Position numbers and translations under genes: made by a program. This document shows, one piece after another, positions 1,295 through 49,574 of a DNA stretch of 64,000 bases; positions within the stretch are counted from its first letter, which is position 1; the number at the start of each line of letters is the position of its first letter. The notes under the pieces are model-generated. The model was not told where the DNA came from. It was given only the letters and a program-made list of their open reading frames with translations, and ran no database searches. This DNA is from a virus, in the IMG/VR virus record IMGVR_UViG_3300044614_001845, positions 6,689 through 70,688 of that record. The stretch is one strand, 5' to 3'.

Positions 1295-1459
1295 TTAAAC
1301 CTCTGGAATTCCTGAAAATTTACTGTCGCTGATTTCAAAGTATTCGTAATAAAAACCCTTTGGAATTGATTTAATTGCAGCCTCCAGTGATGGTGCCGTG
1401 ACTCTGTAAATATCGTTGAATTTATTAAAAAAGATGTAAGTTCGCTTTGTTAAGCTCAT
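1295..1459 (-). CDS. small hypothetical protein (54 aa, not in ORF track)
   Basis: hand translation MSLTKRTYIFFNKFND...GIPEV fills the gap between neighbours. Confidence 0.6.
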   Translation of the reverse strand: MSLTKRTYIFFNKFNDIYRVTAPSLEAAIKSIPKGFYYEYFEISDSKFSGIPEV

Positions 1460-1462
1460 AGA

Positions 1463-1744
1463 TCAAATATGCGGGGTGGGATAATTAAACTCTGTGCCCG
1501 TAGAAAGCTTTGTAATTTCAATGTCTTCTTTGGGCAAACAAATCAAAGCCTGATCAAGAACCATTTTTGCAAATTCTTCTGATGCAGGCTTTGCATCAAT
1601 CATCTTGCCGTCTTGCGTTGTTTTCTCCATACGAAAACAATTTTCAAATGCGCCCCAATGAATTCGATGAAAGCGCACAATAAATAACTGTTTCGCATCT
1701 CGTCTGTCAAAGAGACGAAACTCTTGAATTTGTCGAATGTTCAT
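1463..1744 (-). CDS. hypothetical early protein
   Basis: 93-aa ORF in tight operon. Confidence 0.7.
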   Translation of the reverse strand: MNIRQIQEFRLFDRRDAKQLFIVRFHRIHWGAFENCFRMEKTTQDGKMIDAKPASEEFAKMVLDQALICLPKEDIEITKLSTGTEFNYPTPHI

Positions 1745-1747
1745 GAA

Positions 1748-2002
1748 TCAAGCCTGTTCGTAGAAGTTAACAAATGCGACTGTGCAGCTGCCAATCGGGC
1801 GCAGTTCAAAATAGTCTCCGTTGTCAAATGTTTTGCAACGAACACCAGTCAGCCCGAGTTCTTTTTTTGCAGCAGTAACAATTTGTCGCTGCGTTGCATT
1901 TTCTTGTGTGAAAAATGTACCGCGACGCACCCACGAATAATTTGCTTCACCAGCAAATGTATCTGTGTACTCGCATGTCCACTTGAAAACTTTGTCGCTC
2001 AT
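1748..2002 (-). CDS. hypothetical early protein (YTDTFAGEANYSWVRR motif)
   Basis: 84-aa ORF, first gene after promoter P2. Confidence 0.75.
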   Translation of the reverse strand: MSDKVFKWTCEYTDTFAGEANYSWVRRGTFFTQENATQRQIVTAAKKELGLTGVRCKTFDNGDYFELRPIGSCTVAFVNFYEQA

Positions 2003-2073
2003 GATTTTCTGTGAAATAAAAAAGAAACAAATGCGACGAAAAAGAAAGTAGTTCTCTCCCGTCGCATGTCTAC

Positions 2074-2110
2074 ATTATAGCACGTATCAGCTTACGTGTC
2101 AAGTATTAAT
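2074..2110 (-). promoter_or_regulatory. early sigma70 promoter P2
   Basis: ATTAATAC-TTGACA-N17-TATAAT; spacer nearly identical to P1; hairpin at 2031-2067. Confidence 0.9.
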
Positions 2111-2367
2111 CAATCCGCATAGGCAAAAGAATAACGCTCGTTATACAAATCGCAGGCGTATTTTTCTTCATTGCTAATTTCATCTTCGCCACACCTTGAA
2201 TCAATCCAGTCGGGCGACAATTCATTGCAGTCGAGCATGTCACGAATTTGATCGTGACTCATGAATTTAAGACACGCGAGAAGTAAATCGTTTTCCGTCG
2301 TATGTTCTTCCTCAAGTAACTGCATCGCGTAATCGCGTGGATCGTCTTGAAAATTGTCGAAGTCCAT
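2110..2367 (-). CDS. hypothetical acidic early protein
   Basis: 85-aa D/E-rich ORF. Confidence 0.7.
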   Translation of the reverse strand: MDFDNFQDDPRDYAMQLLEEEHTTENDLLLACLKFMSHDQIRDMLDCNELSPDWIDSRCGEDEISNEEKYACDLYNERYSFAYAD

Positions 2368-2660: not shown

Positions 2661-2943
2661 CTTCCACCTCCGAATAACTAACGCCGGGCATACCGCAAAG
2701 AAAGTTAGGACGATTTAATTTTTTATGCACATAGTTAACGTATTCGTTGAATGTTGCCGCAGGAACATTGCCAAACAAATACATGTGAAGCTTCAATGCT
2801 TCTCCCTTCGCATACAAATTAATAATGTCTTTATCTTGATCGTCTGCGATCTCTTTGTTGATTTCTAGTGCGTAATCAAGAATGTCCTGTTTGCAGGAAA
2901 ATTGAGCACGAAAGTTCATGATGTCCTGATTTGTGAGTTGCAT
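2656..2943 (-). CDS. hypothetical early protein
   Basis: 95-aa ORF; stop inside the promoter octamer. Confidence 0.7.
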   Translation of the reverse strand: MQLTNQDIMNFRAQFSCKQDILDYALEINKEIADDQDKDIINLYAKGEALKLHMYLFGNVPAATFNEYVNYVHKKLNRPNFLCGMPGVSYSEVEG

Positions 2944-2950
2944 AATTGAA

Positions 2951-3166
2951 TCAACCGTTTACAATTTGCTGAAATTGATCAAAAACTTTTTGCTTTGAAC
3001 CCTTCAGATTAAATTGATTTTTGATTACCGAATAAGCAGATTGCCCTCTAGAAATCTTCATGCCTTTAATTTCCAGGGCCAGTGCTCGCAGTAAAACTTT
3101 CATTCGATAAATCTGAATGTCGTCACCTGAAATAACAGTGCCGCCGTCAAAATTTTCAATTGCCAT
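2951..3166 (-). CDS. hypothetical early protein
   Basis: 71-aa ORF (LALEIKGMKISRGQSAY), first gene after P4. Confidence 0.7.
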   Translation of the reverse strand: MAIENFDGGTVISGDDIQIYRMKVLLRALALEIKGMKISRGQSAYSVIKNQFNLKGSKQKVFDQFQQIVNG

Positions 3167-22669: not shown

Positions 22670-22870
22670 ATGATTATGACTGAGATTACCGAGCCTTACC
22701 TTGAGGCGCCATGTAAAGAAAATGAGTGGAAGTGGCGCGTTTACGGAATCGGGATGGTGTGGGATCATGCGCAAGAGTGGCAGGCTCGATGGAAGCTCCA
22801 CTACTTACAGGTTTCACGAGGCACAACCACCGACAATGGCCCGCGACGCGACACAGGCTTACCTCAATGA
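22670..22870 (+). CDS. small Trp-rich hypothetical protein
   Basis: WRVYGIGMVWDHAQEWQA. Confidence 0.55.
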   Translation: MIMTEITEPYLEAPCKENEWKWRVYGIGMVWDHAQEWQARWKLHYLQVSRGTTTDNGPRRDTGLPQ

Positions 22871-23723
22871 GATAGGGCGATACCCCCTCCTGACGAAAAC
22901 TCAAGAGGTAATTCTTGGTACGCAGGTGCAGGCTTGGATGAACATAAAAGACAAAGATGAAAATCAATACACAGAAGAAGAGAAGCGCATAGCAAGAATT
23001 GGCAGGCGAGCAAGAGATAAATTCATCAAATGCAATCTTCGTTTAGTTGTAAATGTTGCACGCAAGTATGTCCCAAGATGCAACAGTCTTGACTTGATGG
23101 ATTTAGTGCAGGAAGGAAATGTTGGACTTGCAAGAGCTGTAGAAAAGTTTGACCCAACACGCGGGTATGCGATGAGCACATACGCATACTGGTGGATCAG
23201 GCAGGCGATACAAAGATCAATGCAATTCAGCGATGCAACAATTCGCCTACCAATTGGAATTCACGAATCAGTCATCAAGATCACAAAAACAACAGAGCGA
23301 CTGACAAAAGAGCTTGGGCGCGAGCCAACACTTGAAGAAATATCTATCGAGCTGGAAATTGCCATACCAGAGATCAAAGCAATACTTGATGCGCCAAGAG
23401 CCTCAACGAGCCTGGACAAACAGGCGAACGAATCTGATGGGAGTAGTCCGCTGATAGAACTAATCTCAGACTCCAAGCACTCCAACACGATAGAAGATGC
23501 AGAGCAAAGAATTGCAATTGAGGATGCGTATGCAGCGATAGAAAGTTATCTAGACGAAACCACGCAGTATGTGATCTTTGAACGCATGAAAGATCCGCCG
23601 ACGCCCTGGAAAGAGATCTGCGAGATTACAAAGATGACACGCGGAAGATTGCAACTAATGGAAAAGACTGGTCTACAACGCTGCGCACTCTTGCTGCGCA
23701 TCAAAAATAGATTCGATCTTTAA
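22836..23723 (+). CDS. RNA polymerase sigma70-family factor (group 2-like, lacks region 1.1)
   Basis: YLNEIGRYPLLT, NLRLVV, DLVQEG.VGL.RAVEKFDPTRGY..STYAYWWIRQ; start moved to ATG 22836. Confidence 0.92.
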   Translation: MARDATQAYLNEIGRYPLLTKTQEVILGTQVQAWMNIKDKDENQYTEEEKRIARIGRRARDKFIKCNLRLVVNVARKYVPRCNSLDLMDLVQEGNVGLARAVEKFDPTRGYAMSTYAYWWIRQAIQRSMQFSDATIRLPIGIHESVIKITKTTERLTKELGREPTLEEISIELEIAIPEIKAILDAPRASTSLDKQANESDGSSPLIELISDSKHSNTIEDAEQRIAIEDAYAAIESYLDETTQYVIFERMKDPPTPWKEICEITKMTRGRLQLMEKTGLQRCALLLRIKNRFDL

Positions 23724-24845
23724 TTACTTTGGCTGCGGGCAAGTACCAAGTTTGTAATCAACAAATAAATCATGCGGATCTGAATCTCTCAGCCAGCTGA
23801 CAAGCTTTCGATAGTCCGCTTCATTTGCAATTCCAATGCAACCTGCGGTGCCAGGTGAAGTTCTTGCATTGCTATCAATGTGAATCTCGATAGCACTGCG
23901 TTCAGTCCCCCCAGGCCCCAAATACCTCAGTGGTGTACTCACAGGCCCAAGGCCAGGCCCCCAGCTCCCCGAGTAGTTGTCCTTCCCACTCGCCCACTCA
24001 ATATCTTCAATGCCCCAGCGGCCCTCTGGAAGCGGTTCAAGGCTGCCAGCTCGACTGCGTGCCCCAACTCTGAATTGCTGCGCCCCAGGAGCCCCGGAAA
24101 CCACCAGTAGCGACCCGATTGATTCGCCGCCCTTGATGTACTCAAGCTTGAGTTGCTCAAGCCCACGTGCATCCAGCTTTCCCGTGCGAGTCAGCAGCAG
24201 ATGTGGCTTGGGGGCATTGGCAGGAATCGGACGTGCGCCAACAAAAAGATCAATTTCGTCTTTCCTGCGATTAACAAGTCCCTGTAAGATTTTGCCATCC
24301 GCCTTATTCCAACGTGGCAGCTCTTCAATAACAACTTTTACGGGATCTTCTTTGTTGAACAGTCTTTTGCGCAGAGTGCTTTCTTCTAATGCCCCAAGTC
24401 CAACATTGTAGGCGAAGGAAATAATTGCAGCAGTTTGCTCAGGGCGCCAAGTTTTTGCCATTGGCAGCAAAGCAAAAACACCCGGCGCAAAGAGATTCTC
24501 TACTTCATTTTGAAGCAGCTCTTCTGCCATGTCTTGTGTAATCTTGTCCCCCATTCGCACGGCGCGATCAATGAATCGAGTTGCGCCATATCCAATTGTC
24601 GGAACACCAGCTGGGCACTTATACGCCTCCAGTCTGCAGCCCTCCCATTTCCTGATAAGTCTGAGTGCAGGTGCAAGCCATGCAGGCGCAAGTGGTTGTT
24701 TCTGCAGTGGATCAGCCCGATACAACTCCGCAAACTCCTTCAGCACTTCATCAGAAAGCTTCCCCTGCAGCCAATCCCAAGCTGCAAGTTGATGCGGTAG
24801 TTCCTTGAAATGCTTTGCAGCACTGCGCAGTTGAATTGCACTCAT
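23724..24845 (-). CDS. endolysin: GH24 lysozyme plus C-terminal L,D-transpeptidase/Tlde1-like domain
   Basis: E-x8-C-x5-T (EGCRLEAYKCPAGVPT), GLVNRR; PLPEG...IEIH...GTAGC. Confidence 0.85.
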   Translation of the reverse strand: MSAIQLRSAAKHFKELPHQLAAWDWLQGKLSDEVLKEFAELYRADPLQKQPLAPAWLAPALRLIRKWEGCRLEAYKCPAGVPTIGYGATRFIDRAVRMGDKITQDMAEELLQNEVENLFAPGVFALLPMAKTWRPEQTAAIISFAYNVGLGALEESTLRKRLFNKEDPVKVVIEELPRWNKADGKILQGLVNRRKDEIDLFVGARPIPANAPKPHLLLTRTGKLDARGLEQLKLEYIKGGESIGSLLVVSGAPGAQQFRVGARSRAGSLEPLPEGRWGIEDIEWASGKDNYSGSWGPGLGPVSTPLRYLGPGGTERSAIEIHIDSNARTSPGTAGCIGIANEADYRKLVSWLRDSDPHDLFVDYKLGTCPQPK

Positions 24846-25111
24846 TTGTCGCTCCAGGGTGCTTTGATTTGCATTGCGCCGCCCAATTTGCGACTTTCGC
24901 CCGTCTGCAGAGTGTCGTCGGGCGCTTCATGCAAGACGACTGGCTTCTCTTGTTGTGGTTGAGCTGCCAACCAGTCGGCTTCAGCGCGATCTAAGCGAGG
25001 CTTGAGAGTGGCGTAAAACTTGTGATCCTGTGCTGCCTTGCGCAGGTGATCACGCCATGTCTTGTCGCCGAATCGCGCCAGCCAGACGGTTTCGGCGTTC
25101 AGCGCTTTGGG
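24842..25111 (-). CDS. lysis-cassette ORF, probably expressed as a -1 frameshift extension of the upstream membrane protein
   Basis: no ATG until the last 10 codons; frame entered at CCCAAAG. Confidence 0.6.
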   Translation of the reverse strand, partial: PKALNAETVWLARFGDKTWRDHLRKAAQDHKFYATLKPRLDRAEADWLAAQPQQEKPVVLHEAPDDTLQTGESRKLGGAMQIKAPWSDK

Positions 25112-25236
25112 AAAAGAATCTTGAGCGCTTTTACGATCAACTGCACCCAAGAATTTTCTTTAACAGGAAGCAGCGCGATAATTTCAGAGCCAGCTGCAAT
25201 GATAATTGCGATAACGGCTGCGGTGGTGGGGTCCAT
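25099..25236 (-). CDS. small holin-like membrane protein (45 aa, not in ORF track)
   Basis: MDPTTAAVIAIIIAAGSEIIALLPVKENSWVQLIVKALKILFPKR. Confidence 0.75.
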   Translation of the reverse strand: MDPTTAAVIAIIIAAGSEIIALLPVKENSWVQLIVKALKILFPKR

Positions 25237-25238
25237 GA

Positions 25239-25490
25239 TTAGCAGGAAGGTGGCCTTGCTTCCAGCTTAGAGACTCTTTGCTCAACTGTGTTAAGCCTTT
25301 GAAAAGTTTCTTTTCTGTCTTCTTTAATATCTTGATGAAGGACTTCAAGTTGAGTTGCAATATGCTCTACTGCACTTGTAAGACGAATAACTGCATCTCG
25401 TGCTTCATCGCTTCTACGTGAGAAGCCCATTGCCCCCATCGCTGCAACGGAGATAGACGCGCCAGCCACTGCGGCAAGGACTTCGATCAT
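25239..25490 (-). CDS. TM plus coiled-coil lysis-associated protein
   Basis: hydrophobic N-terminus, heptad C-terminus; first gene of the lysis cassette. Confidence 0.7.
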   Translation of the reverse strand: MIEVLAAVAGASISVAAMGAMGFSRRSDEARDAVIRLTSAVEHIATQLEVLHQDIKEDRKETFQRLNTVEQRVSKLEARPPSC

Positions 25491-25547: not shown

Positions 25548-27965
25548 TTATGCAAACCTCAGCGAGAATTGATGTAGACCTTGATTGGCGGCATCAGATA
25601 GAACAAACATGCGGGTGCCGTCAGGAGACACGCGAACGCCCCAAGGTGTACTTACTGCTCCTGTTAAGCCATACAGAGGGATTAGCTCAACAGTGCTCAG
25701 CGTTGCAGTGGAGAGGTCGCTTGGAGAGGTCATTGCAATTTGCCTGACTTGACGCCCGCCATTCGCGGCACTGTTGTCAACAGTGGCGTAGATTCGCAAG
25801 CCATCAGCCATAACATGAACGCCAAATGATCCAGTCAAAGCAAGGCTCTGCGAAAGTGTGGCCGTGCCCAGTTCATAAGCAGTGCTTAATGTGTATTTGC
25901 GAATGTTGTCCGCGTCGCCCGCAAGAAACAACAACGTACCATCATTATTAACGTGAATACCACGCGGGGCTGATTCCGTGCCGCCTACATAAATAAATCC
26001 CTTAGCTGTGCTGATGTCCCAAGCTGTGCCAAGCTGGATTTCATATACAACATCGTTTGTAGATCCAACAAGATAAATTTCTGTGCCGTCATTTTTGAAG
26101 GTCACTCCTAGAGGAGAAGTTTCAAATCCAACAGATAATGCTTGTACAAATGAAATTGTTGATACGTTCCAGGCTGTAGATAGTGAAAACTCCCTAACTG
26201 TGTCATTCGTTGGGCCGGTAACGTACATCTTTGTACCGTCATCTTTGAACCATAATCCTGTAGGAGTTGCTTCGCCAATCGTTGCAGATACACGCACAAA
26301 AGATGCAGTGCTGATATTCCAAGCGGTGCTCAGATCGTATTCGTTTACATCATCGCCAGTAGCACCAGTAACATACATCTTGGTGCCGTCTGGCTTAAAG
26401 AATAAAGCGCTAGGAACGGTTTCTTGTTCATGGACCAAGTATCGACCCGTAACCGAACGTGGTTCCCAAGCAGTCGTAAGAGAATACTGGATAATACGAT
26501 CTGCGGTGTCTCCAACAATGTACATCTCCGTGCCATCATTCTTAAAGGTCATCCCTTGAGGTGTTGCATCGCCTGCAAAATAATATCCAAGGAATGAAAT
26601 TGTAGACACATCCCATGCTGTACTTAAACTAAAAACTCTTACAGTATCTGAACCTGTCCCAACCACAAACATTTTGTCGCCGGAAGATGAAAAGAAAACT
26701 GCACTTGGAGCTGTGTCGCCAGTGCCAGCAGATGCTCTCACGAATGATGCAGTTGAAATATCCCATGCTGTAGAAAGTGCATACTGATTAACGTCATCGC
26801 CAACAGTGCCAATGACGTACATCTTGGTGCCACTATCACCAAAGAATAAACCAGTGGGAACAGTTTCTTGACCTGCTACGCTAAATGAAACGGTATCATA
26901 AGTTGCAGTTGAGACATCCCATGCCGTTGACAGGCTGTATTGAAAGATCGAATCGGTGATATTGTTTAAGATATACATCTTGGTGCCATCATCCTTAAAA
27001 AATAAATCTGTACTCTCAGTTGCTTGAGCGTTGACACTTACACTTTTATTTGCATAGCTAGCTGTTGTGACATCCCAAGCTGTGCTTAATGTATATTGAA
27101 AGACAATATCGGTGGTTGCTCCAGGACTCATGACATACATTTTGGTGCCGCTATCATCAAAAGCAACGCCACTGATAGTGGTCGTTTGCCCTGACACAAG
27201 GAACGACTTGGCTACATAATCAGCAGTTGCAGTTGAAATATCCCATGCGGTAGACAATGTATACGAAAGGATGACGACGTTTGTACCACCAATTACATAC
27301 AGCTTTGTTCCGTTATCTCGAAAAAATAAAGCAAACGGAGTTGCGTCTAGCGTAGTTACGCTTAAACTTTTATTAGCATAAGAAGCGGTGCTTACGTCCC
27401 AAGCCGTGCTTAGTGTGTACTGATATACGGTATCATTCGTGCCACCCATGATGTACATTTTGGTGCCACTGTCACCAAAGAACGGTGTGCGTGGTGTGGC
27501 ATCTTGCGTGCCTACATAAAACTTTTTAACGTCAACCGTAGCTGTAGCTAGATCGTAAGGCGTGGAAAGCGTGCAGGACCACACAGTGTCTACAGCGTAG
27601 CCCGTAAAAAACAAACGAGTGCCGTCATCGCTAATTGCAATTCCGTTACAGTTAAGGTCGTAGTCACCGACTACCAAACTCTTACTGGAGTAAACAATGG
27701 TTGAGAGATCCCAGGGCGTTGTGCATTCGTACTGAAAAATGGTTGCAGTCAGTCGCGTGCCGCGCACAGCAACGTAAACGTAGCGACCATCGCGGCTAAC
27801 ATCAAAACCCTCTTCAATACCAGAACTACTCAGGGCATTGAAAACACCGTCATAGCTAAAGCGGCTGATGTATTTTTTGGCGTCTTGTAGCGCTACTGCG
27901 TCCTCGGGCTGATACACCCCGCTGGTGCGCTTGTTATCTGTGCCGCCGATCAGTCCGAGCCTCAT
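25548..27965 (-). CDS. beta-propeller repeat protein (putative receptor-binding/fibre tip)
   Basis: roughly 15 repeats of ~50 aa: DGTKMYV.G...D.V.QY.LSTAWD.STA. Confidence 0.8.
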   Translation of the reverse strand: MRLGLIGGTDNKRTSGVYQPEDAVALQDAKKYISRFSYDGVFNALSSSGIEEGFDVSRDGRYVYVAVRGTRLTATIFQYECTTPWDLSTIVYSSKSLVVGDYDLNCNGIAISDDGTRLFFTGYAVDTVWSCTLSTPYDLATATVDVKKFYVGTQDATPRTPFFGDSGTKMYIMGGTNDTVYQYTLSTAWDVSTASYANKSLSVTTLDATPFALFFRDNGTKLYVIGGTNVVILSYTLSTAWDISTATADYVAKSFLVSGQTTTISGVAFDDSGTKMYVMSPGATTDIVFQYTLSTAWDVTTASYANKSVSVNAQATESTDLFFKDDGTKMYILNNITDSIFQYSLSTAWDVSTATYDTVSFSVAGQETVPTGLFFGDSGTKMYVIGTVGDDVNQYALSTAWDISTASFVRASAGTGDTAPSAVFFSSSGDKMFVVGTGSDTVRVFSLSTAWDVSTISFLGYYFAGDATPQGMTFKNDGTEMYIVGDTADRIIQYSLTTAWEPRSVTGRYLVHEQETVPSALFFKPDGTKMYVTGATGDDVNEYDLSTAWNISTASFVRVSATIGEATPTGLWFKDDGTKMYVTGPTNDTVREFSLSTAWNVSTISFVQALSVGFETSPLGVTFKNDGTEIYLVGSTNDVVYEIQLGTAWDISTAKGFIYVGGTESAPRGIHVNNDGTLLFLAGDADNIRKYTLSTAYELGTATLSQSLALTGSFGVHVMADGLRIYATVDNSAANGGRQVRQIAMTSPSDLSTATLSTVELIPLYGLTGAVSTPWGVRVSPDGTRMFVLSDAANQGLHQFSLRFA

Positions 27966-41834: not shown

Positions 41835-44800
41835 TCAGATACCTATTTGACGGCGAGCTTTGACGCTGTTCTTGAGTGAGCTGAGTGTGAGGGCGCGTCC
41901 ACGCTCCGCAGCTTCGGCAAGTCCACGCTGGTACTGATCAACAGTAACATACTCGACATTGTTTATCATCTGAGATTCATACTTAATATCAAGCGGCTTG
42001 GTGATCGCAGTTACGTTGCTTTCCATGACACGCTCCATGTTCTTTTCCTTATTCATGCTTGACACAGAGCTGAGCACTTCTCGTGTCTGACTGATTGCGC
42101 TGCTCGTCTCCCTGCTATCACGCGCTTGCATGAGAGCGGAGATCGTCTCCTTCGTGGAAATAGCCGACTGAGAACCAGAAGACTTGCCAACTGCATTGCG
42201 TGAATCGCCAAAAGCAGAAGCCTCGGCTTTCTTAGAAGAATCAGGCGAGGAGATACGATCTGTGATTTTCTCAATGAACTCACGAGAGTTGGTAATCGCA
42301 CCAGCCTCGCCCACCTGTTGCATCTGATCTGGCTCGCCGCCACTGATTTCAGAAGCAAGAACGCCACGCGCAGCGGAAATGGCATCACCGTATGCAAGCT
42401 GCTGCTGAGAACCAGCGGCAAATTGATCAGTACCATCAGCGCTGCCAGTCTGATTATTTGTAATTTCACGAATCGTATTGCTATCTTTAGTTGCAAGCAG
42501 CTTGTAAAGCTCTCGTGTTTCAGGAGAGGCAGAAGCTGCAGCAGCAGCAGCTTTTGCATCATTCTCCTGAGTGATGCGCTTGATCATTTCAACGGCGCCC
42601 CTGGAATCGGAGATCGCCATTGCAGTAGCCCGCGACATCTTGCCTTGGGCTTCACCTGACTTGAGGCCCATAGCGCCATAGCCATCAGATGCGCTACCAG
42701 ACAGCTCCAGCCCTGTCGTTCCATCGCCCTGAGCCATTGCATCAGAAGCCTCATCAAGGGCATCCCTGGCTTCAGAGATGGCGTCAGAGAAGCCTGTTGC
42801 GTCAACGCCAAGACGACCATCGGCGCCACGGCTAAGGGGGATGATCGCTTCTGGGCCAGCCTCACCCATGAGGCCAGTCTTGCGAATTCCACCATCGGCA
42901 AACCTGAAGAGAGTCGGCGAGGAGACAATGGAATTCGTAAACATTCCACCGCTACCGAAAGAGGCAATTCCGCCGTTGAAATAAGCACCTTTCGCGGCAA
43001 GACCGCCGAGCATATCTGTAATATTCCCTGCCCCCGTATCAAGACCGGTATTAGTAGCCTGTCCCATCGAGCCAGGCAGCGATGTAGCGCCAGCGCTTCC
43101 AATAGAAGCAAAAAGACCAAGCGCTTTAATTGCTGAACCCCAAACAAACATCAGTATTTGATCTGCAACAATTTTTGCCGCCATTTCAGCAAAAGCATCT
43201 GCAATTCCTTGCATCATTCTTGATAAAGCATCTTTAACCTGTACACCAGTATTTGAAAGCTCATTCATCTTAAGCTTGGCTTGATTGATTTGATCTGTGT
43301 ATCTCTTGTACTCATCTGTGCCTTCTTCTGTCTTGGCGCGAAGTTTTTCAAACTGAGAAATTTCGCGTTGCAGATCAAAGCGCTCCTGCATGGTCCCTAG
43401 GCCAGTTGCACCAAGAAACACGTCTTGAATGCCTTGCTCAAGGGCACCACGCACACTTTCTGCGGTTGACCGTATCTGCTGCGCAGCCTCAAGTTTTCTT
43501 GCTAACTCGTCAGCAGCAGCAGCCTCTCTCAGCAATGCTTGGCCATGTTGATCGGAAAGATCAATTCCACGCACCTGAGCCTCTGCTTGAAGTTTCTGAA
43601 CTTCAGTTAGGCGGCCAAAAACATTCATCTGAGCCTCAAGCTCAAGCTTCAGCTCGTTGTTACCTTGGGTAAATTCAATTAATTTATCAGACTTAAATGT
43701 TTCGTCTTGCGCTTGGCGAATTTTATTGATAATTGCAGGTCTTCCGTTTTCTAGATTAAGTAAGGCTTGGAGCCTTTTCACTAGCTCATCATTTTTGCCG
43801 ATCTGGCTCTGTATTTGTTGATTAATCGCATCAACAAGAACCTGCTCAGCCGCTAAATCCTTAGACCTGACACCACCGCCTTGTCGGTACTGCTCAAACA
43901 GCTTGCTAGAAGAAATAATCTGCTTGTCAAGCTGATCAGTAATTGAGCTAAGAGCAGTTTCGCTATCAATTTGCGATATAAGACCCGCAATATCTTGCAA
44001 TGCAACTTTTAAGTTATTGCCAGCCTGCAGGGCTTCTGAGATGCCACGAGTCGAAACGCTGGAGCCACCCACAGCGCCGACACCTTTAAGTTTCCCTGGG
44101 GCAGAAATAGCTTTAATTTCCCCCTCGCCTTTTTTGATTGCATCAAGCTGCGCCCTGTAAACATCAATTGCATTTTGAATTCCTTGTGCTGCATCAGTTT
44201 CGCCCAAGGCTTTCGACTGCTTAAGTGCAACCTCAAATCCTTTAATTTTTGACTCAAAGCTAATTCGCTCCTGGGAAAGCTTGAACTGTGCAATTTTCTT
44301 TTCAAGGGTGAAGCGAGTGCTATCGTACTCTTCATTTCTTTGACGCACTTGCTCGTTAATATCGCTAACTTTTTGCGCTGTATCTAGGTTTAGCTTGCTA
44401 ACTTGATCTGCGATTTGAATTTTGTATTTTTCTGTATCTACAACGCTATTCTGAATATCAAGCTCAAGCTTGGCTCTTTGTGTAGCTGAGTCATTTTGAA
44501 TCTGAGCAACTGTTTCAACGGCGTTGAGCAGCTGATCCGTGACCTGACCCGCCGTGGTGTCAGCAAAAAGACCACGAAATTCTTGATTTGCTTGTTTGAT
44601 TTTTGCAAGTTCAAGCTCTGCAGATCTTGCTCTTAGATCAATTTCAGTCTCCGCATTTTCGCGCCTTTGTTGAAGAATCCTGCTTTCAACATCTTGGCGT
44701 ATTTGTGAAATACTTTCTTCGTAGGAGCGAACAAGATCCGCTCGCTGTTTGTCAAGATCCCGTTGCTCACGTGCGGCCTGCCTGACTTGATCCTTTAATG

Positions 44801-47800
44801 ATTTGCCAATATCAGTAGTTTCAAGCTTTTTTGTTAAAATAGCAATTTCTTGTTCTGTTTTCTGTGTTGCATCAGCTGCGGGCTTGAGCTTGACAGGAAC
44901 CGAGAAGTCCTTGAATTCATCTACAAGTTGAGCCCTAAGGTTATTCGCTTCTTCGTCAGAAAGAAAGTTACCGATGCCCAAATCACGTAAAATGCTTGCG
45001 CCGATGCCGCCACGACGCATCTCAATATCAATGCGTCTTTGCTCAAATTCTTGTTTTTTTGTACCCGATAGACCGGCTCCAATATCAGCTACTGCCGCCC
45101 TAGAGCGAGACTCCTGATTTGCCAGATTAAGAACTTTTGATACCCACTCCAGCAAGCCCGCCATTGGCCCAGCAAGTGCCGTTTGAAGCTGAAGACTAAA
45201 TTCAGCCCAAGCACGATTCAATCTGTCAGACGAACCTGCTAGCTGCTGCAGGGACTGAACGCCGGTTCTGCCAATCTTGCTAATAATCTCTTGTTGAGAA
45301 ATTACAGCCGCAGAAGCGACCAAACCAGCCTCTTGAAGCTTGCCTGCAAATTTTTCTGTTTGCGTTGAGCTAAATAATGCTCGTTCTTTTACTTTGTCAA
45401 ATGTTGCAGTTGTATCAGTTAAAGCTGCACCCAGCTCCGTTGCTCCTTGAACCGCAGTGTCAAAAGCAGTGCCAAGCGCCGTGCCAACCAAAGACAAACC
45501 AAAGCCAAGCCCGCCACCGGCAAAACCGCCAGCTGCACCACCAAGGCCGCCAAGCACAGACGCGCCCAAGCCCTGCCCAAACAGCAACGGGAAGGCGCCA
45601 CCAACTAGGCCCTCACTGACTGCACGACCGCCTCTAGAACCAAAGCGGCGGGTCAGAAAATCAGCATCAGGAGCACGGCGCTCAAGCTGACGATCAAGAT
45701 TGGCGGCAGTTTCACGAAGCTGCTTTTCAAGGCGATCAAAACCCTCAGATGTTGGATCAAGAATTGCCCTGAATTCCTTGAGAACCGCGCTGAGTGCCTC
45801 AAGCTCCTTAATAGATGCAGTCGCTGGCTTGGCCAGTTCCTTGAGTCCAAGCACAGCCTCTGGACCTTGGGCTACAGCTTCCTCAAAGCGACGACCAAAA
45901 TCTCCTGCTCCACCACCCGCTCCAGCGCGACCTCCACCGCCAAAACCACCAGGCGGCAACATGCCCCCAATGCTGTCAAATAGAGACGGAATAGCGTTAC
46001 GAACTCGATCTATTGCATTTTCAAACTTGTCAGCAATTGTAAAACCAAGAGCCTCAAGCGAATTCAGCAATGAGTCGGAGACGCGCTGAGATACATTCGC
46101 AACAGCAGAAGATGCACCAAGCCTTTTTTCTCCAGTAATAACATCCGTCACACTAGAAAGACCGGCGCCTCTGCCGGACTCTGTTAGTTTTCTTGCAAGT
46201 TTTGCTCCTCCAAGCTGAGCGCTTGATTTAACAATATTAGAAATAGCGCTAAATTGAGAATCTTCGCCTTCCCAGAAATTATTAACAGCGTCCCGATACT
46301 TCTTGATTGACTCAGATACGGCCCTGCTTGCATCGCTTCTTGTGCCAAGCCCACCAAGAGCAGAAATCGGCCCATCAACAGGGAACTGCTGAGCGCCACC
46401 CATCTGATAGCGCTGGAACGGAAAAGCTGAACCAGGCGCACCAATGGCAGCCTGCGGACGAATTGAGAACAATCCAGTTCCACCAAGGCCAACAGGGCCT
46501 TGCGAAAGCGGCGCAAACAAAGAAGAAGAGATTGCGCCTTGAGAACGAATAACAGAAGAAAGAGGACCAGTGAACGCACCAGTTTTAGAAACAGCGCGGA
46601 TAGCAGCATCCGTAATCGCCTGTTCAAGTCCGCCACCTGGAGCTGCAGCATTTCCACGCAACAACCTTCTTTCGTCAAGCGGCAACAATCTTGTCTCTGG
46701 AAGAATTTTTCCAGCCTCAAATGCCTTCCTTTGCATTGCTTGAGGAAGAACATTGCTAGATAAAATTTCTGGACCGGCAAGCTGCGCTAGCTGACGGAAC
46801 AATGACGGCTTTGCTGATGTTCTTCCAGCAAAGTTGGCAAGCTTTTCAATTAAATCTTGACCACCAGCAACAGAACCAGAAAGCGGCGCCTTTAGCACAT
46901 TTCCAAGTTTGGGCGCGAATAAATCTTCAACAGCAGCGCGAACAGCAGCTTTTCCAGCTCTTGCTGTATTGACCGCCGTATCAATAACATTCTCCATTGC
47001 CCTAATGGCAACACGAGAAGGGCTTTGAATTTCAAGTCCCTTGTTGAGGCCGTCTTCAACAGCTTCTCCGAGCGCTTCTCCAGCTCCAACAGCTTTTGGA
47101 ATTCCGGCACGCGCCTCGGAAACAAGAGCGCTAACTACATTGGCGCCAGCTCCTTTGCCAGGCTTGCCTGTATTGAACTCACGAACGATCTTGTCAATTC
47201 CCTGCGCAGGAGAAACACCACCAAGGAACTTTTCGCGTGCTGCGCGAGCGTTTCCAAGACTTTCAATTGCTTGCTCTAAGCCTGAGCCAGCTTCGCCGGA
47301 GCGTCGCCCAGAACCACCTTGACCAGCAAGTATTTGCTTCTGAAGAGATACATATCTTCCAGCAAGCCCAACTTGCTCAGTCAGAGCATCTAAATTATTC
47401 TGGGTAATTACATAATCTTCTCTCTTGGCATTATTTAATGCTTGCTGAAGGCTATTTAACTCAGAGGTTACGTCAACTCCCTTGCGCTGAAGATTTATCA
47501 GTCCCTGCTCAATGACTGCGCCAGAAGCAAGGGTGTAACGAAGACGACGAGGAGCATCAAGTCCAAGGGCTTCACCGCCTCTGATTGTTGTGCCACGAAT
47601 CGACTTTGGTTGCTGAGCTTCACTAATGAGCTTTTCTAGTCTTAAACGCTTAGCGGCTATCTCGTTTACGTCAAGTAAAGTATTAAGGGTCTTTTTAGTA
47701 TTTTGATAATCATCAGAACCAGCGTTAGCAATTGCATCCCTAACAGCAGAAAGCTCACGAGCAACATCAAGTCCTTCTTTTTGCGCAGAAAGAAGCTGCC

Positions 47801-49574
47801 TTTCAAGAATCTGAGAAGATAGAATAGCGCTTTCAACTCTTTTTTTGCCTTCAACCGGCGAAATCTGACCAGTTTTAATTATTTCTGGACGAATCTTGCC
47901 TTCCCGACTTTTTCTTTCTCGGTCTACTTCGGAGGCAATTGTTCTTGCAACAGTGAAACGCTTTTCATCAATAGCAAGACGCGCTTCGTCAAGATCAAGA
48001 AGTAGCTTTTTCTTCTGTAACTCATTGATTAAGCCTTTTTCGGCGGCTATTTGAATTCTCGTCTCGGCGCCAGACACCCTTTCTAGGGCCGAACTAAATC
48101 TTTCTCCAGCAAGGCGATCTTGTTTTTCTGTAATCTGTCTTGCTTTTTCTGCGGCAGCACGAGCCCTTACCTCTGCTCCGCCTCCAAGAACGGTCGCAAA
48201 TGGACGCTCGCCCGCTGCGCCACCCTTGCTCAATTCTTTGTTTCTATCTTTAATTTCACGAATCTGCCTCTTCAGTTCAACTGTTTGTTTTTTTGCCGCT
48301 TCAATTGAGCCAACACTTGTGTCTTGGTAGATTTTATCAATTTTATTTCTTAGCTCAAGCGCTTCATTTTGATCTAATGTTATTTTGGTTAGCTCGTACT
48401 CAAGATCAATGAGCTTGTCTACCTGCTGTTCTTGTTTTTTGCCAAGATTTTCTTGATATTTTGCACGCTTAGCAGCAGATTGGATACTGAACTGCGGCAG
48501 CAATTCTGATTTTCCCTGAGGAGCGGCAATCCCATCAGCAATAGCTTTTGCAAGACCGGAAGACTGTCCACGCAGGCCAGCAAATCTTTGCTCAAGCTGC
48601 TGCAGTTCGCCGTTTACATCATTGATGACTCCTTCAAGAAGATTCCACTCAGAGCTATCAAATGGAACAAGTGACTGAAGACTTGACGCCTGCGAAATGT
48701 AATCAGAAAGAGCAGCTCTTGATTTTGTGATTGCGCCATATGACTCAACAAAGGTTCCAATCAGTGACCTTGCGCCAGCCAAGCTTTCTTGACTGCCAAT
48801 TCTTTGCGCGGTCCTAGATCGAGCATTTTGCTCCTGCGGAAGCGCAAGTCCCTCCGCAAGCGCTTTTAACTGCTGCTGGCGTCCCTCAAAAATTTTCTGA
48901 TTGGCAACCTGTGAGGCAAGTACAAAGCGATTGAATTGCTTTGATGCGATCTCGGAGTTACTTGCAACAAGAGAAAGCGCCTCCGCCTGGCTTCGCAGTT
49001 GAGCAATACTTCCACTGCCTTGACTTGCTGCTACTTTTCCTGTTACGGGTGTCCTTGTTTGATACCTACCAAGCTTTAGATATTCGTCAGAAAGATCAGT
49101 AAGGGCTACCGTAAGTCTTTGAATTTGCTTGGTTTCGTCTAAATACCTCTGAGCGCCAGGTAATTTACTTTCTTGCCTTTGGAGTCTCTCTTCTAGTTGC
49201 CCTCTTTTTTTCTTTGCCTCAGTTAGCTTACCCTCTAGCTGCAATGACTTAAGCAATGCGTCAATATGTTTTTGACTGCCAACCGTTAGCTGCGATATTG
49301 CTTTATTAGCAGATATGAAATCTTTTTCAAGATTTTTGACAACTCTGTCATAGCTATTGTAATCTTTCTGTGCTTCGCGTATAGATTTTCTTACTTCTGA
49401 AAGCCCATCTGTTGCTGCATCAAGAGCAATATTTGCTTTGTTTATATCTAACTTAATCGGCGATGAGTTAATGCCATTTACAATTGATTCAAGTCGGCTT
49501 ACATTTTGAATTAGCCTTTCAAGCTTGGAACCGCCTTTTACTTCAAGATTAACAGAGGCGCTAATTCCAGCCAC
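41835..49574 (-). CDS. tape measure protein
   Basis: 2579-aa helical protein; Gly-rich hydrophobic segment; C-terminal GLMGEAGPEAIIPL. Confidence 0.92.
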   Translation of the reverse strand: MAGISASVNLEVKGGSKLERLIQNVSRLESIVNGINSSPIKLDINKANIALDAATDGLSEVRKSIREAQKDYNSYDRVVKNLEKDFISANKAISQLTVGSQKHIDALLKSLQLEGKLTEAKKKRGQLEERLQRQESKLPGAQRYLDETKQIQRLTVALTDLSDEYLKLGRYQTRTPVTGKVAASQGSGSIAQLRSQAEALSLVASNSEIASKQFNRFVLASQVANQKIFEGRQQQLKALAEGLALPQEQNARSRTAQRIGSQESLAGARSLIGTFVESYGAITKSRAALSDYISQASSLQSLVPFDSSEWNLLEGVINDVNGELQQLEQRFAGLRGQSSGLAKAIADGIAAPQGKSELLPQFSIQSAAKRAKYQENLGKKQEQQVDKLIDLEYELTKITLDQNEALELRNKIDKIYQDTSVGSIEAAKKQTVELKRQIREIKDRNKELSKGGAAGERPFATVLGGGAEVRARAAAEKARQITEKQDRLAGERFSSALERVSGAETRIQIAAEKGLINELQKKKLLLDLDEARLAIDEKRFTVARTIASEVDRERKSREGKIRPEIIKTGQISPVEGKKRVESAILSSQILERQLLSAQKEGLDVARELSAVRDAIANAGSDDYQNTKKTLNTLLDVNEIAAKRLRLEKLISEAQQPKSIRGTTIRGGEALGLDAPRRLRYTLASGAVIEQGLINLQRKGVDVTSELNSLQQALNNAKREDYVITQNNLDALTEQVGLAGRYVSLQKQILAGQGGSGRRSGEAGSGLEQAIESLGNARAAREKFLGGVSPAQGIDKIVREFNTGKPGKGAGANVVSALVSEARAGIPKAVGAGEALGEAVEDGLNKGLEIQSPSRVAIRAMENVIDTAVNTARAGKAAVRAAVEDLFAPKLGNVLKAPLSGSVAGGQDLIEKLANFAGRTSAKPSLFRQLAQLAGPEILSSNVLPQAMQRKAFEAGKILPETRLLPLDERRLLRGNAAAPGGGLEQAITDAAIRAVSKTGAFTGPLSSVIRSQGAISSSLFAPLSQGPVGLGGTGLFSIRPQAAIGAPGSAFPFQRYQMGGAQQFPVDGPISALGGLGTRSDASRAVSESIKKYRDAVNNFWEGEDSQFSAISNIVKSSAQLGGAKLARKLTESGRGAGLSSVTDVITGEKRLGASSAVANVSQRVSDSLLNSLEALGFTIADKFENAIDRVRNAIPSLFDSIGGMLPPGGFGGGGRAGAGGGAGDFGRRFEEAVAQGPEAVLGLKELAKPATASIKELEALSAVLKEFRAILDPTSEGFDRLEKQLRETAANLDRQLERRAPDADFLTRRFGSRGGRAVSEGLVGGAFPLLFGQGLGASVLGGLGGAAGGFAGGGLGFGLSLVGTALGTAFDTAVQGATELGAALTDTTATFDKVKERALFSSTQTEKFAGKLQEAGLVASAAVISQQEIISKIGRTGVQSLQQLAGSSDRLNRAWAEFSLQLQTALAGPMAGLLEWVSKVLNLANQESRSRAAVADIGAGLSGTKKQEFEQRRIDIEMRRGGIGASILRDLGIGNFLSDEEANNLRAQLVDEFKDFSVPVKLKPAADATQKTEQEIAILTKKLETTDIGKSLKDQVRQAAREQRDLDKQRADLVRSYEESISQIRQDVESRILQQRRENAETEIDLRARSAELELAKIKQANQEFRGLFADTTAGQVTDQLLNAVETVAQIQNDSATQRAKLELDIQNSVVDTEKYKIQIADQVSKLNLDTAQKVSDINEQVRQRNEEYDSTRFTLEKKIAQFKLSQERISFESKIKGFEVALKQSKALGETDAAQGIQNAIDVYRAQLDAIKKGEGEIKAISAPGKLKGVGAVGGSSVSTRGISEALQAGNNLKVALQDIAGLISQIDSETALSSITDQLDKQIISSSKLFEQYRQGGGVRSKDLAAEQVLVDAINQQIQSQIGKNDELVKRLQALLNLENGRPAIINKIRQAQDETFKSDKLIEFTQGNNELKLELEAQMNVFGRLTEVQKLQAEAQVRGIDLSDQHGQALLREAAAADELARKLEAAQQIRSTAESVRGALEQGIQDVFLGATGLGTMQERFDLQREISQFEKLRAKTEEGTDEYKRYTDQINQAKLKMNELSNTGVQVKDALSRMMQGIADAFAEMAAKIVADQILMFVWGSAIKALGLFASIGSAGATSLPGSMGQATNTGLDTGAGNITDMLGGLAAKGAYFNGGIASFGSGGMFTNSIVSSPTLFRFADGGIRKTGLMGEAGPEAIIPLSRGADGRLGVDATGFSDAISEARDALDEASDAMAQGDGTTGLELSGSASDGYGAMGLKSGEAQGKMSRATAMAISDSRGAVEMIKRITQENDAKAAAAAASASPETRELYKLLATKDSNTIREITNNQTGSADGTDQFAAGSQQQLAYGDAISAARGVLASEISGGEPDQMQQVGEAGAITNSREFIEKITDRISSPDSSKKAEASAFGDSRNAVGKSSGSQSAISTKETISALMQARDSRETSSAISQTREVLSSVSSMNKEKNMERVMESNVTAITKPLDIKYESQMINNVEYVTVDQYQRGLAEAAERGRALTLSSLKNSVKARRQIGI

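Follow-up and report, generated by a model that had tools for sequence, protein, structure and literature searches.

A programmed -1 ribosomal frameshift on the slippery heptamer C CCA AAG very probably yields two proteins, of 45 and 130 aa, from a small membrane protein gene in the lysis cassette of a freshwater cyanophage. Most ribosomes on the 45-aa open reading frame (ORF) would stop at its UGA, and some would slip back by one base on the heptamer, with tRNA-Pro and tRNA-Lys re-pairing on CCC AAA, and read on in the -1 frame as far as position 24842. The outcome would be a short form and a long form with a common N-terminal membrane helix, the long form carrying an additional domain of 87 aa. 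Such a pair of forms with a common membrane anchor had been proposed in the original prediction, and comparative evidence from related phages, set out below, strongly backs it.

Organization of the cassette

The window, that is, the whole stretch of 64,000 nucleotides that was analysed, contains the site between an 805-aa tail-fibre-like gene and the endolysin gene (Table 1). The 45-aa membrane ORF on the minus strand does end in TTC CCA AAG CGC TGA, as the original prediction had read it, with the heptamer in frame as X XXY YYZ; translation across the slip gives the expected junction ..ILFPK/ALNAETVW.., and the -1 frame is open to 24842, its sole ATG lying 10 codons before the end. Upstream this frame is open from 25159 (its stop being 24844..24842), and the only start-like codon there is a TTG at 25150. 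The predicted short product of 45 aa stands; the long one, put at about 131 aa, comes to 130 aa (43 + 87).

The -1-frame stop overlaps the endolysin ATG as ATGA (24845..24842). The suggestion that coupling of the two genes meters endolysin translation is not needed, because the endolysin has its own GGAG ahead of its ATG, an arrangement also present in the cultured phage S-CBS3. The endolysin matches Phage_lysozyme at E 5.3e-37; a YkuD-like match (E 0.0011) falls below the cut-off.

Table 1. Features of the lysis cassette and of the candidate frameshift site, with one further gene of the window (window coordinates)
Feature	Position	Strand	Basis or remark
83-aa protein gene, first in the cassette	25239..25490	-	ORF list
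Short-form zero-frame ORF, 45 aa	25099..25236	-	ATG start; one hydrophobic helix
Slippery heptamer C CCA AAG, candidate -1 shift site	25105..25111	-	In frame as X XXY YYZ
Second heptamer T TTC CCA, in frame, overlapping the first	25108..25114	-	Not conserved
Zero-frame stop TGA	25099..25101	-	One codon past the heptamer
Hairpin CGCCGAA/UUCGGCG	25066..25097	-	7 nt 3' of the heptamer
-1-frame extension, 87 codons and stop	24842..25105	-	Open reading frame
GGAG, 6 nt 5' of the endolysin ATG, within the ..APWS codons of the extension	24852..24855	-	Sequence
Endolysin gene, 373 aa	23724..24845	-	ORF list; Phage_lysozyme match
Tape-measure-like ORF, 2579 aa	41835..49574		

Conservation of the heptamer

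The window has 7 copies of CCCAAAG where 8.4 would be expected, so it is the comparison with relatives that carries the case; what exceeds chance is the position of the heptamer and its conservation across these relatives. The added domain was found in 123 loci, in 120 of which CCCAAAG or AAAAAAG lies in frame within the overlap. Two others (L110 and L151) have the heptamer by inspection, and the last (L140) is not evaluable, its sequence beginning past the site. Alignment of homologous cassettes, proposed together with the original prediction, thus finds C CCA AAG or A AAA AAG kept in 122 of 122 evaluable loci (92 unique sequences), which are kin and so do not count as independent events. The stop follows one codon past the heptamer in 87 of the 92 unique cassettes. 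Two cultured phages carry the A AAA AAG type: gp21 of S-CBS3 ends in GGA AAA AAG CTC TAG and its -1 ORF reaches the endolysin start, and CPKG_00007 of KBS-S-2A ends in GCA AAA AAG AGC TGA, followed by an unannotated -1 ORF.

The codons that make up the heptamer are fixed. In the C CCA AAG type TTC, CCA and AAG are each present in 54 of 54 unique cassettes, against a codon-usage expectation of 0.072, and in the A AAA AAG type AAA and AAG are each present in 33 of 33; the flanking Leu, Lys, Val and Arg codons, unlike these, vary synonymously. Before A AAA AAG the codon is GGA (21), AGA (7) or GCA (5), such that the amino acid differs and the third base is always A. The overlapping T TTC CCA is found in 25 of 58 unique C CCA AAG cassettes (24 of 57, plus L088, a locus with both heptamer types). 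On the tree of the domain the heptamer type changes 7 times, and at least 3 of these changes are forced by well-supported branches. Cassettes designated type D, which are without the domain, still have TTC CCA AAG in 10 of 11 unique sequences, so that part of the conservation may come from shared ancestry or from another constraint.

Frame of selection across the site

Upstream of the site, the mean entropies at the three codon positions of the zero frame are 0.58, 0.22 and 1.26; downstream, in the -1 frame, they are 0.74, 0.57 and 1.28. The position of highest variability accordingly shifts at the site from position 3 of the zero frame to position 3 of the -1 frame. Judged by these profiles, the heptamer marks the point where purifying selection passes from the zero frame to the -1 frame. 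The -1 ORF is intact in the 92 unique cassettes, with lengths of 63-95 aa, and contigs from three further runs span the site without an indel. In a search of close relatives, 77 homologs of 47-153 aa included no in-frame fusion of the two frames; three candidates for such fusions (P0063, P0137 and P0149) proved from their sequences to be read-through or indel artefacts.

Alternative explanations

Could the -1 ORF be translated without a shift? Independent initiation within it is hardly credible. TTG 25150 is listed as a start, public predicted proteins begin at the equivalent codon, and gp22 of S-CBS3 is annotated from an internal ATG; the original prediction would by its own account be refuted by homologs without the heptamer and with a separate start for the downstream ORF, such as TTG 25150. 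The heptamer is kept, however, and TTG 25150 is not a general start, because the -1 frame is closed within 18 nt upstream of the heptamer in 28 of the 92 unique cassettes and because in 77 of the 92 no ATG, GTG or TTG follows the last -1 stop before the heptamer is reached. Past the heptamer the first start-like codon falls anywhere from codon 3 to codon 79. In addition, a stop separates the TTG position from the heptamer in L003, the internal Met of S-CBS3 is Leu in L045, conservation extends to residues ahead of any such start, and KBS-S-2A has no annotated start whatever. Termination followed by reinitiation at a CUG, UUG or GUG overlapping the UGA (NUGA), which would release a free soluble protein of 85 aa and no fusion, is improbable yet conceivable, since 80 of the 92 unique cassettes have such a codon over the stop (CTG 65, TTG 12, GTG 3) and the distant locus L399 uses a GTG that overlaps its TGA. 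Free-standing relatives with starts of their own exist as well: 61 of 62 unique distant relatives have one shortly past the upstream stop (54 within 9 codons, 31 codons at most). Against reinitiation, 12 of the 92 have TAA or TAG stops and hence CTA, TTA or GTA, from which it could not start, and CUG, which overlaps the stop most often, starts translation poorly in bacteria. The relatives with their own starts mostly have their own hydrophobic helix (most distant relatives have a central, moderately hydrophobic one in the same frame as the domain), and the present ORF has none. Nor would reinitiation explain the invariance of the heptamer at synonymous sites, the third-base A that stays fixed when the amino acid changes, or the loss of the heptamer exactly where a real start exists, L399 having the broken version TTC CCG AAG. 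Another distant locus, L406, has TCA AAG only, then one codon and the stop.

The two frames might also be joined before translation, or not at all. Transcriptional slippage, in which the RNA polymerase would add or drop a base and so produce mRNA with the frames fused, has the six-A run of the A AAA AAG variants in its favour. The site in the window has just three C and three A, however, homopolymer runs known to cause polymerase slippage are far longer than three bases, and both heptamers obey the in-frame X XXY YYZ re-pairing rule, which polymerase slippage does not need; we regard it as very improbable. Equally little probability attaches to the view that there is no recoding, in which the -1 ORF would be a remnant in decay, or the split an error of assembly, with a heptamer that arose by chance. 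In its favour, the window has no excess of the heptamer, and cassettes of types C and D manage without the domain. Such a view is at odds with the purifying selection on the -1 ORF, with its integrity throughout the unique cassettes, and with the fact that cultured phages and contigs of independent runs show the same frame arrangement. A -1 ribosomal frameshift remains our preferred reading of the site.

Hairpin and host decoding

The original prediction had placed a hairpin with an inner helix 7 nt downstream of the heptamer, and this structure is indeed part of the minimum-energy fold. A 65-nt segment folds at -20.7 kcal/mol, an energy ordinary for its composition, since z is -0.21 and 85 of 200 shuffled sequences fold equally well; for 92 nt, z is -1.75. 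Among relatives, the suggestion that the hairpin acts as a conserved stimulator is not supported: the consensus folds are weak, 73.0% of cells are paired against 71.4% in shuffles, and covariation is limited to one pair. One consensus fold, of -3.9 kcal/mol, has a single kept pair with both bases changed, and another, of -10.9 kcal/mol, has none. Neither a conserved 3' structure nor a 5' Shine-Dalgarno-like stimulator was found, and in the window the sequence ahead of the heptamer shows no Shine-Dalgarno-like element.

The data show the site, its conservation, the missing alternative start and the change of frame in selection; that the shift takes place, and how often, we infer. According to a published study, C_CCA_AAG is highly shift-prone in E. 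coli (PMC5009743). Two picocyanobacterial metagenome-assembled genomes (MAGs) with related loci, incomplete and presumed to represent hosts, gave 73 tRNA matches (one of them cut by a contig end and not typed), in which the sole Lys tRNA anticodon is UUU, with one copy per MAG. A host that decodes AAG by tRNA-Lys(UUU) alone would make A AAG prone to shift.

The 45-aa protein and its 83-aa neighbour

In the 45-aa protein, 15-residue hydropathy reaches its maximum of 2.5 over residues 8-22; after the hydrophobic helix comes a basic amphipathic tail that ends in ..FPKR. It has conserved homologs, and its only match in PHROGs is phrog_22542 (E 1.5e-09), a family of unknown function; Pfam and NCBIfam gave no match. 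With its one hydrophobic helix and a place one gene upstream of the endolysin, the ORF fits the layout of small holins, and in cassettes of types C and D other small membrane ORFs occupy its slot. The holin/antiholin or spanin-like roles suggested in the original prediction are putative: in Pfam, PHROGs and NCBIfam no family of holins, antiholins or spanins matched the 45-aa protein or the added domain. The ORF has a single ATG and no second start nearby, and so lacks the dual start of the lambda S type; there is no Cys in it or in the 87-aa extension, and thus no lipobox of the kind found in o-/u-spanins.

The 83-aa protein encoded at the head of the cassette has a hydrophobic helix at its N-terminus and a tail resembling a coiled coil, and is kept in all cassette variants. 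It belongs to phrog_26178 (unknown function), with a weak PHROG match to Rz-like spanins (E 0.013) and a weak TIGR03495 LysB match (E 0.043; 14.1 bits against a cut-off of 92.75). At least 568 relatives are present in IMG/VR, the best 80 of them at 88-100% identity; of the 80 loci fetched with this gene, 37 have the frameshift cassette.

The added domain

Just past the site, residues L9, F12, G13 and W17 of the extension are at least 90% conserved. The domain, for which an AlphaFold2 model has a mean pLDDT of 81.6, consists of a long helix and then a small strand motif, which ends in a conserved ..LQTGxSRxLGGAMxIxAPW tip. Searches of Pfam, PHROGs and NCBIfam found no family for it, a sequence profile search of the PDB returned no matches at E up to 1, and the ESM Atlas gave nothing above 0.81, which was uninformative.

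In one clade the C-terminal half of the domain is fused to a lysozyme, and this fusion therefore provides a first lead to the role of the domain; the lysozyme-fused form (P0130/P0170) was absent from IMG/VR and from the JGI metagenome scan. A further protein, P0150, had no match in IMG/VR, and L321, taken up as an unusual form, proved to be an ordinary cassette. As to topology, read from the sequence and its hydropathy profile, the basic residues past the helix argue for a cytoplasmic C-terminus, and the relatives with signal-like N-termini (in some distant relatives, Cys after a basic N-terminus and a hydrophobic stretch) argue for a periplasmic domain.

Comparison with known systems

The site resembles that of E. 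coli dnaX (tau/gamma) in several ways. Its heptamer is of the same bacterial class, X XXA AAG (the A AAA AAG of dnaX is also what the S-CBS3 and KBS-S-2A variants have), the two products would share their N-terminus, and a stop is near. In dnaX the shift gives rise to the shorter of the two products, helped by a 3' hairpin and by a Shine-Dalgarno-like element ahead of the site; here, by contrast, it would yield the longer product, no conserved stimulator was found, and both gene family and function are unrelated. A-site slippage on A AAG is reportedly used by insertion sequences, at CGA AAG in IS1222 and at A AAA AAG in orfA-orfAB of the IS3 family, where it likewise fuses overlapping ORFs; the TCA AAG of L406 resembles the hexanucleotide type. 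Those sites lie in transposase genes, unlike the present one in a phage lysis gene.

Among phage genes, the tail assembly chaperones G/GT, in which frameshifting is said to occur in lambda and other tailed phages, offer a likeness in mechanism: a -1 slip towards the end of a short ORF carries translation on into an ORF that lacks its own start, and so sets the proportion of short to long product. G/GT serve tail assembly and are flanked by the major tail gene and the tape-measure gene, whereas the present site lies between a tail-fibre-like gene and the endolysin and would extend a membrane protein. If the 45-aa protein is a holin, lambda S105/S107 would be a parallel in function, since there too one gene gives a small membrane protein for lysis as two isoforms at a set ratio. 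The lambda isoforms arise by alternative initiation and are two N-terminal residues apart; those proposed here would differ by a recoded C-terminal domain of 87 aa, and no sequence relation was found. Lysis expression is tied to an overlapping upstream frame in the RNA phage MS2 as well, whose L protein is reportedly made after frameshift errors followed by termination and reinitiation, and in a lactococcal phage whose lysin itself is said to be encoded in two overlapping genes; neither case joins a domain to a small membrane protein. We found no description in the literature of frameshift expression of lysis-cassette genes of this kind.

Implications

In our reading, the long form would serve the lysis cassette as a membrane-anchored accessory, produced at a fixed ratio to the holin-like short form; it may work with the short form, with the endolysin or with the cell envelope. 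A more specific proposal, which we offer tentatively and consider possible rather than likely, is that the frameshift is a stoichiometry device: the short form would be the hole-former, the long form would be a regulator or a tether to endolysin or envelope, and the timing of lysis would be set by slippage, and therefore by the tRNAs and the translation state of the host.

The domain is widespread in cyanophages, and the group of phages concerned is large, as indicated by the number of IMG/VR relatives of the upstream 83-aa gene. The -1 ORF is nevertheless easily missed in annotation: it is absent from the KBS-S-2A record and truncated in that of S-CBS3, and in metagenome gene calls it begins at a spurious TTG. 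The presence of the site in two cultured phage-host pairs makes the frameshift testable. If the stoichiometry proposal is true, the cassette would represent a new and widespread lysis module of cyanophages (PHROGs 22672 and 3316, function unknown), and the first holin-type isoform pair to arise by recoding instead of by dual starts. Most known cases of programmed frameshifting in tailed phages concern the tail chaperones and the capsid; with a conserved site among the lysis genes, the mechanism would also act at the step that times the bursting of the cell, and would link lysis to the translation apparatus of the host.

Layout of the cassette in the window

The virus record containing the window is complete (70,688 bp, with terminal repeats), and the genes bordering the endolysin are collected in the table. 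The 45-aa ORF ends in such a way that C CCA AAG is in its frame, read as X XXY YYZ, and the −1 frame is open across it to a stop that overlaps the endolysin ATG as ATGA. Upstream in the −1 frame the sole start-like codon is TTG 25150, and the sole ATG lies 10 codons from the end; a slip is predicted to yield a product of 43 + 87 = 130 aa. The window sequence confirms the in-frame slippery heptamer and the open −1 frame up to the endolysin start, as claimed in the original prediction. The hairpin placed downstream also folds as described, with an energy ordinary for its composition (−20.7 kcal/mol, z = −0.21), and heptamers number 7 in the window against 8.4 expected; the window alone therefore makes the site plausible, and nothing more.

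Features of the window and of related loci
Feature	Sequence	Position	Strand	Remarks
ORF, 2,579 aa	window	41835-49574	-	probable tape measure
Tail-fibre-like gene, 805 aa	window	27965..25548	-	first in the listed gene order
Gene, 83 aa	window	25490..25239	-	N-terminal hydrophobic helix, coiled-coil-like tail
ORF, 45 aa	window	25236..25099	-	ends TTC CCA AAG CGC TGA
Open −1 frame	window	from 25159 to stop 24844..24842	-	
Heptamer	window	25111..25105	-	C CCA AAG
−1-frame extension (the domain), 87 aa	window	25105..24842	-	
Endolysin, 373 aa	window	24845..23724	-	Phage_lysozyme, E 5.3e-37
Sigma-70 family gene	window	22701-23723	+	
Annotation gap	KBS-S-2A (L479, NC_020854)	1484-1687		about 205 nt
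Conserved −1 ORF	KBS-S-2A (L479)	1426..1716		
gp22	S-CBS3 (L001)	2948-3115		
TTC CCA AAG lacking the domain	L057, a type D locus	2883-2889		
Small ORF and domain gene	L399, a distant locus	1852-2279		
Membrane ORF and domain	L406, a distant locus	1645-2111		

The 805-aa protein, probably a tail fibre or a protein that binds the receptor, comprises about fourteen repeats of a ..TLSTAWDVSTAS.. unit and has beta-propeller matches (Lactonase, SGL); the probable tape measure has coiled-coil-like and Gly-rich stretches and is followed by a 1,211-aa ORF. The C-terminal half of the endolysin has a weak YkuD-like match (E 0.0011, below the cut-off) and S-CBS3-type endolysins end in another C-terminal domain. 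Exchange of the catalytic modules is independent of the cassette with the frameshift site. The sigma-70 family gene is convergent with the endolysin, the two ORFs abutting at 23723/23724, and the cultured phage KBS-S-2A has a sigma factor gene as well, some 0.4 kb past its endolysin and on the opposite strand.

Cassettes in related phages

Among deposited phages the sole DNA match is Synechococcus siphovirus S-CBS3, whose gp21 (46 aa) ends GGA AAA AAG CTC TAG: its heptamer, A AAA AAG, is another canonical one and stands at the same place, one codon before the stop, and the −1 frame likewise extends to the endolysin start. At least 568 relatives of the 83-aa protein occur in IMG/VR, and in 80 fetched loci of these we compared the slot between its gene and the endolysin. 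The slot holds the window type (..FPKR plus domain) in 7 loci, the S-CBS3 type (..KGKKL plus domain) in 30, an unrelated 61-aa membrane ORF adjoining the endolysin in 21, and a 45- or 48-aa ..FPKQRR-type ORF adjoining the endolysin in 19, with three unresolved. Querying with the domain added 80 viral and 5 genome loci; three of the related phage-like loci (L162, L163 and L165) belong to MAGs assigned to Gammaproteobacteria, Candidatus Fonsibacter and Hyphomonadaceae, and are more likely phage contigs mis-binned into these MAGs than a sign of such hosts.

In KBS-S-2A, CPKG_00007 ends GCA AAA AAG AGC TGA; the annotation gap separating it from the endolysin is occupied by the conserved −1 ORF, a gene missing from the deposited record. 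S-CBS3 gp22 is annotated from an internal ATG whose Met is Leu in the related locus L045, and conserved residues lie upstream of the annotated start, which is probably wrong. In type D loci (L041-L081), where the −1 domain is absent, TTC CCA AAG is kept in 10 of 11 unique sequences (L066, with CCT in place of CCA, is the exception) and the −1 frame spans 32-72 codons through the out-of-frame endolysin start; this may reflect either inertia after domain loss or a second use of the site. In three loci (L050, L063, L071) the 83-aa gene is separated from the small membrane ORF by an extra 62-aa ORF (MSSVISTEDLG..).

Selection on the heptamer and access to the −1 frame

The domain is present in 123 loci, 120 of which have an in-frame CCCAAAG or AAAAAAG inside the overlap. 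Inspection found the heptamer in two more (L110 and L151), and one (L140) was left out because the locus begins after the site, so that every one of the 122 evaluable loci (92 unique sequences) has the heptamer. Among the C CCA AAG sequences, TTC, CCA and AAG are each found in 54 of 54, while neighbouring Leu codons (CTG 30, CTT 10, CTC 8, CTA 3, TTG 2) and Lys codons (AAG 39, AAA 13) vary; from the codon usage of these loci, FPK would be written TTC CCA AAG 7% of the time. Among the A AAA AAG sequences the codon before AAA AAG (GGA 21, AGA 7, GCA 5) always has A as its third base despite the change of amino acid. Variability at the three codon positions runs 0.58/0.22/1.26 in the zero frame ahead of the site and 0.74/0.57/1.28 in the −1 frame beyond it; third-position variability thus moves to the −1 frame past the site, and purifying selection therefore switches frame at the heptamer. 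The domain tree shows 7 switches of heptamer type, with well-supported branches forcing at least 3 of them, a count drawn from a short alignment and to which recombination may contribute.

Independent initiation of the −1 ORF, for example at TTG 25150, is contradicted by the relatives: 77 of the 92 unique cassettes lack ATG, GTG or TTG between the last −1 stop and the heptamer, and in 28 the frame is closed within 18 nt upstream. Past the heptamer the first start-like codon falls anywhere from codon 3 to codon 79, and L9, F12, G13 and W17, just past the site, are at least 90% conserved. Gene callers place the start of the −1 ORF at a spurious TTG or at codons within it, and the called lengths range over 50-134 aa.

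The most serious rival is termination-reinitiation, in which ribosomes ending at the UGA stop would restart at an overlapping NUG. A CTG, TTG or GTG does overlap the zero-frame stop in 80 of the 92 cassettes, but the stop is TAA or TAG in the other 12, CUG initiates poorly, and reinitiation leaves the invariance of the heptamer unexplained. The distant locus L399 serves as a natural control: the domain gene of this locus starts at a real GTG overlapping the TGA of an FPK-type small ORF, and there the heptamer is broken (TTC CCG AAG). In a second distant locus (L406), an unrelated 62-aa membrane ORF ends TCA AAG AGC TAG, and the domain lies in the −1 frame after TCA AAG, one codon and the stop, with no start for 71 codons. 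An assembly error at the site is excluded because many loci share it and contigs of three further runs cover the site with no indel. With the heptamer selected across relatives and most cassettes lacking a start for the −1 frame, the −1 frameshift at C CCA AAG is very likely real.

Stimulators and decoding

As a conserved stimulator the hairpin is not supported: across 47 window-type sequences 73.0% of cells are paired versus 71.4% in shuffles, with a 5-bp core kept and one pair covarying, and RNAalifold gives weak consensus folds for the window-type family (−3.9 kcal/mol) and the S-CBS3-type subfamily (−10.9 kcal/mol, lacking covariation). These comparisons brought out no conserved stimulator.

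A AAG is slippery in E. coli, where tRNA-Lys(UUU) is the only Lys tRNA. In two picocyanobacterial MAGs with related loci (both incomplete, their host status inferred), tRNA-Lys(UUU) is likewise the sole Lys tRNA among 73 tRNA matches, one of them cut by a contig end and untyped, which fits this condition. According to PMC5009743, C_CCA_AAG is highly prone to shifting in E. coli.

The added domain and possible functions of the predicted products

The domain finds no match among Pfam, PHROG and NCBIfam families or among PDB sequences. Its AlphaFold2 model (89 sequences; mean pLDDT 81.6, pTM 0.39) begins with a short helix and a long one (residues 15-47), after which a strand-helix-strand covers the conserved tip. 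A profile search of 1.84 billion representatives returned 91 proteins. In one clade (P0130, P0167, P0170) the C-terminal half of the domain is fused in frame to the N-terminus of Phage_lysozyme, a GH24 enzyme (hhalign probability 97.6; Pfam lysozyme domain at residues 98-232; a 9-member cluster spread over at least 25 contigs of up to 36.8 kb). Cyanophage relatives of about 95 aa form a large set (PHROGs 22672, 3316 and 16742, function unassigned in PHROGs); of 62 unique ORFs in it, 61 have their own start, and a central hydrophobic helix in the same frame has a 17-residue hydropathy of at least 1.5 in 8 ORFs, 1.19-1.46 in 36 more, and lower in the rest. In other relatives the N-terminus is signal-like, or it is basic and followed by a hydrophobic stretch and a Cys. 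The domain thus follows a hydrophobic segment in most relatives and is carried on a lysozyme in one clade. In the window clade the equivalent helix is polar, and the upstream ORF would supply the membrane helix through the frameshift; the comparison supports the fusion protein as the probable functional product.

The 45-aa protein is holin-like in size, hydrophobic helix and position, with no holin family match in Pfam, PHROG or NCBIfam, and its 83-aa neighbour has weak Rz/LysB-like matches. The domain is absent from 40 of the 80 related cassettes, a dispensability in keeping with an accessory or regulatory role. The basic residues that follow the helix suggest that the C-terminus of the long form may be cytoplasmic, and relatives with signal-like N-termini suggest that the domain may be periplasmic. 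Metering of endolysin translation by coupling, also part of the original prediction, is not supported: in both the window and S-CBS3 a GGAG belonging to the endolysin stands 6 nt ahead of its ATG, and so the endolysin has no need of coupling to the long form. On the best reading, the long form would be an accessory of lysis, anchored in the membrane and produced at a fixed ratio to the short form; a holin/antiholin pair is a hypothesis.

In the papers examined from full-text searches of the literature, no holin, antiholin or spanin gene is reported to contain a frameshift, and the phage frameshift work found there concerns tail chaperones; the S-LBS1 paper mentions neither a frameshift nor a holin. 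[quoted passage not shown] The site itself is one of the bacterial X XXA AAG sites, a known class; its gene family and functional setting are ones in which no frameshift is reported in the literature searched.
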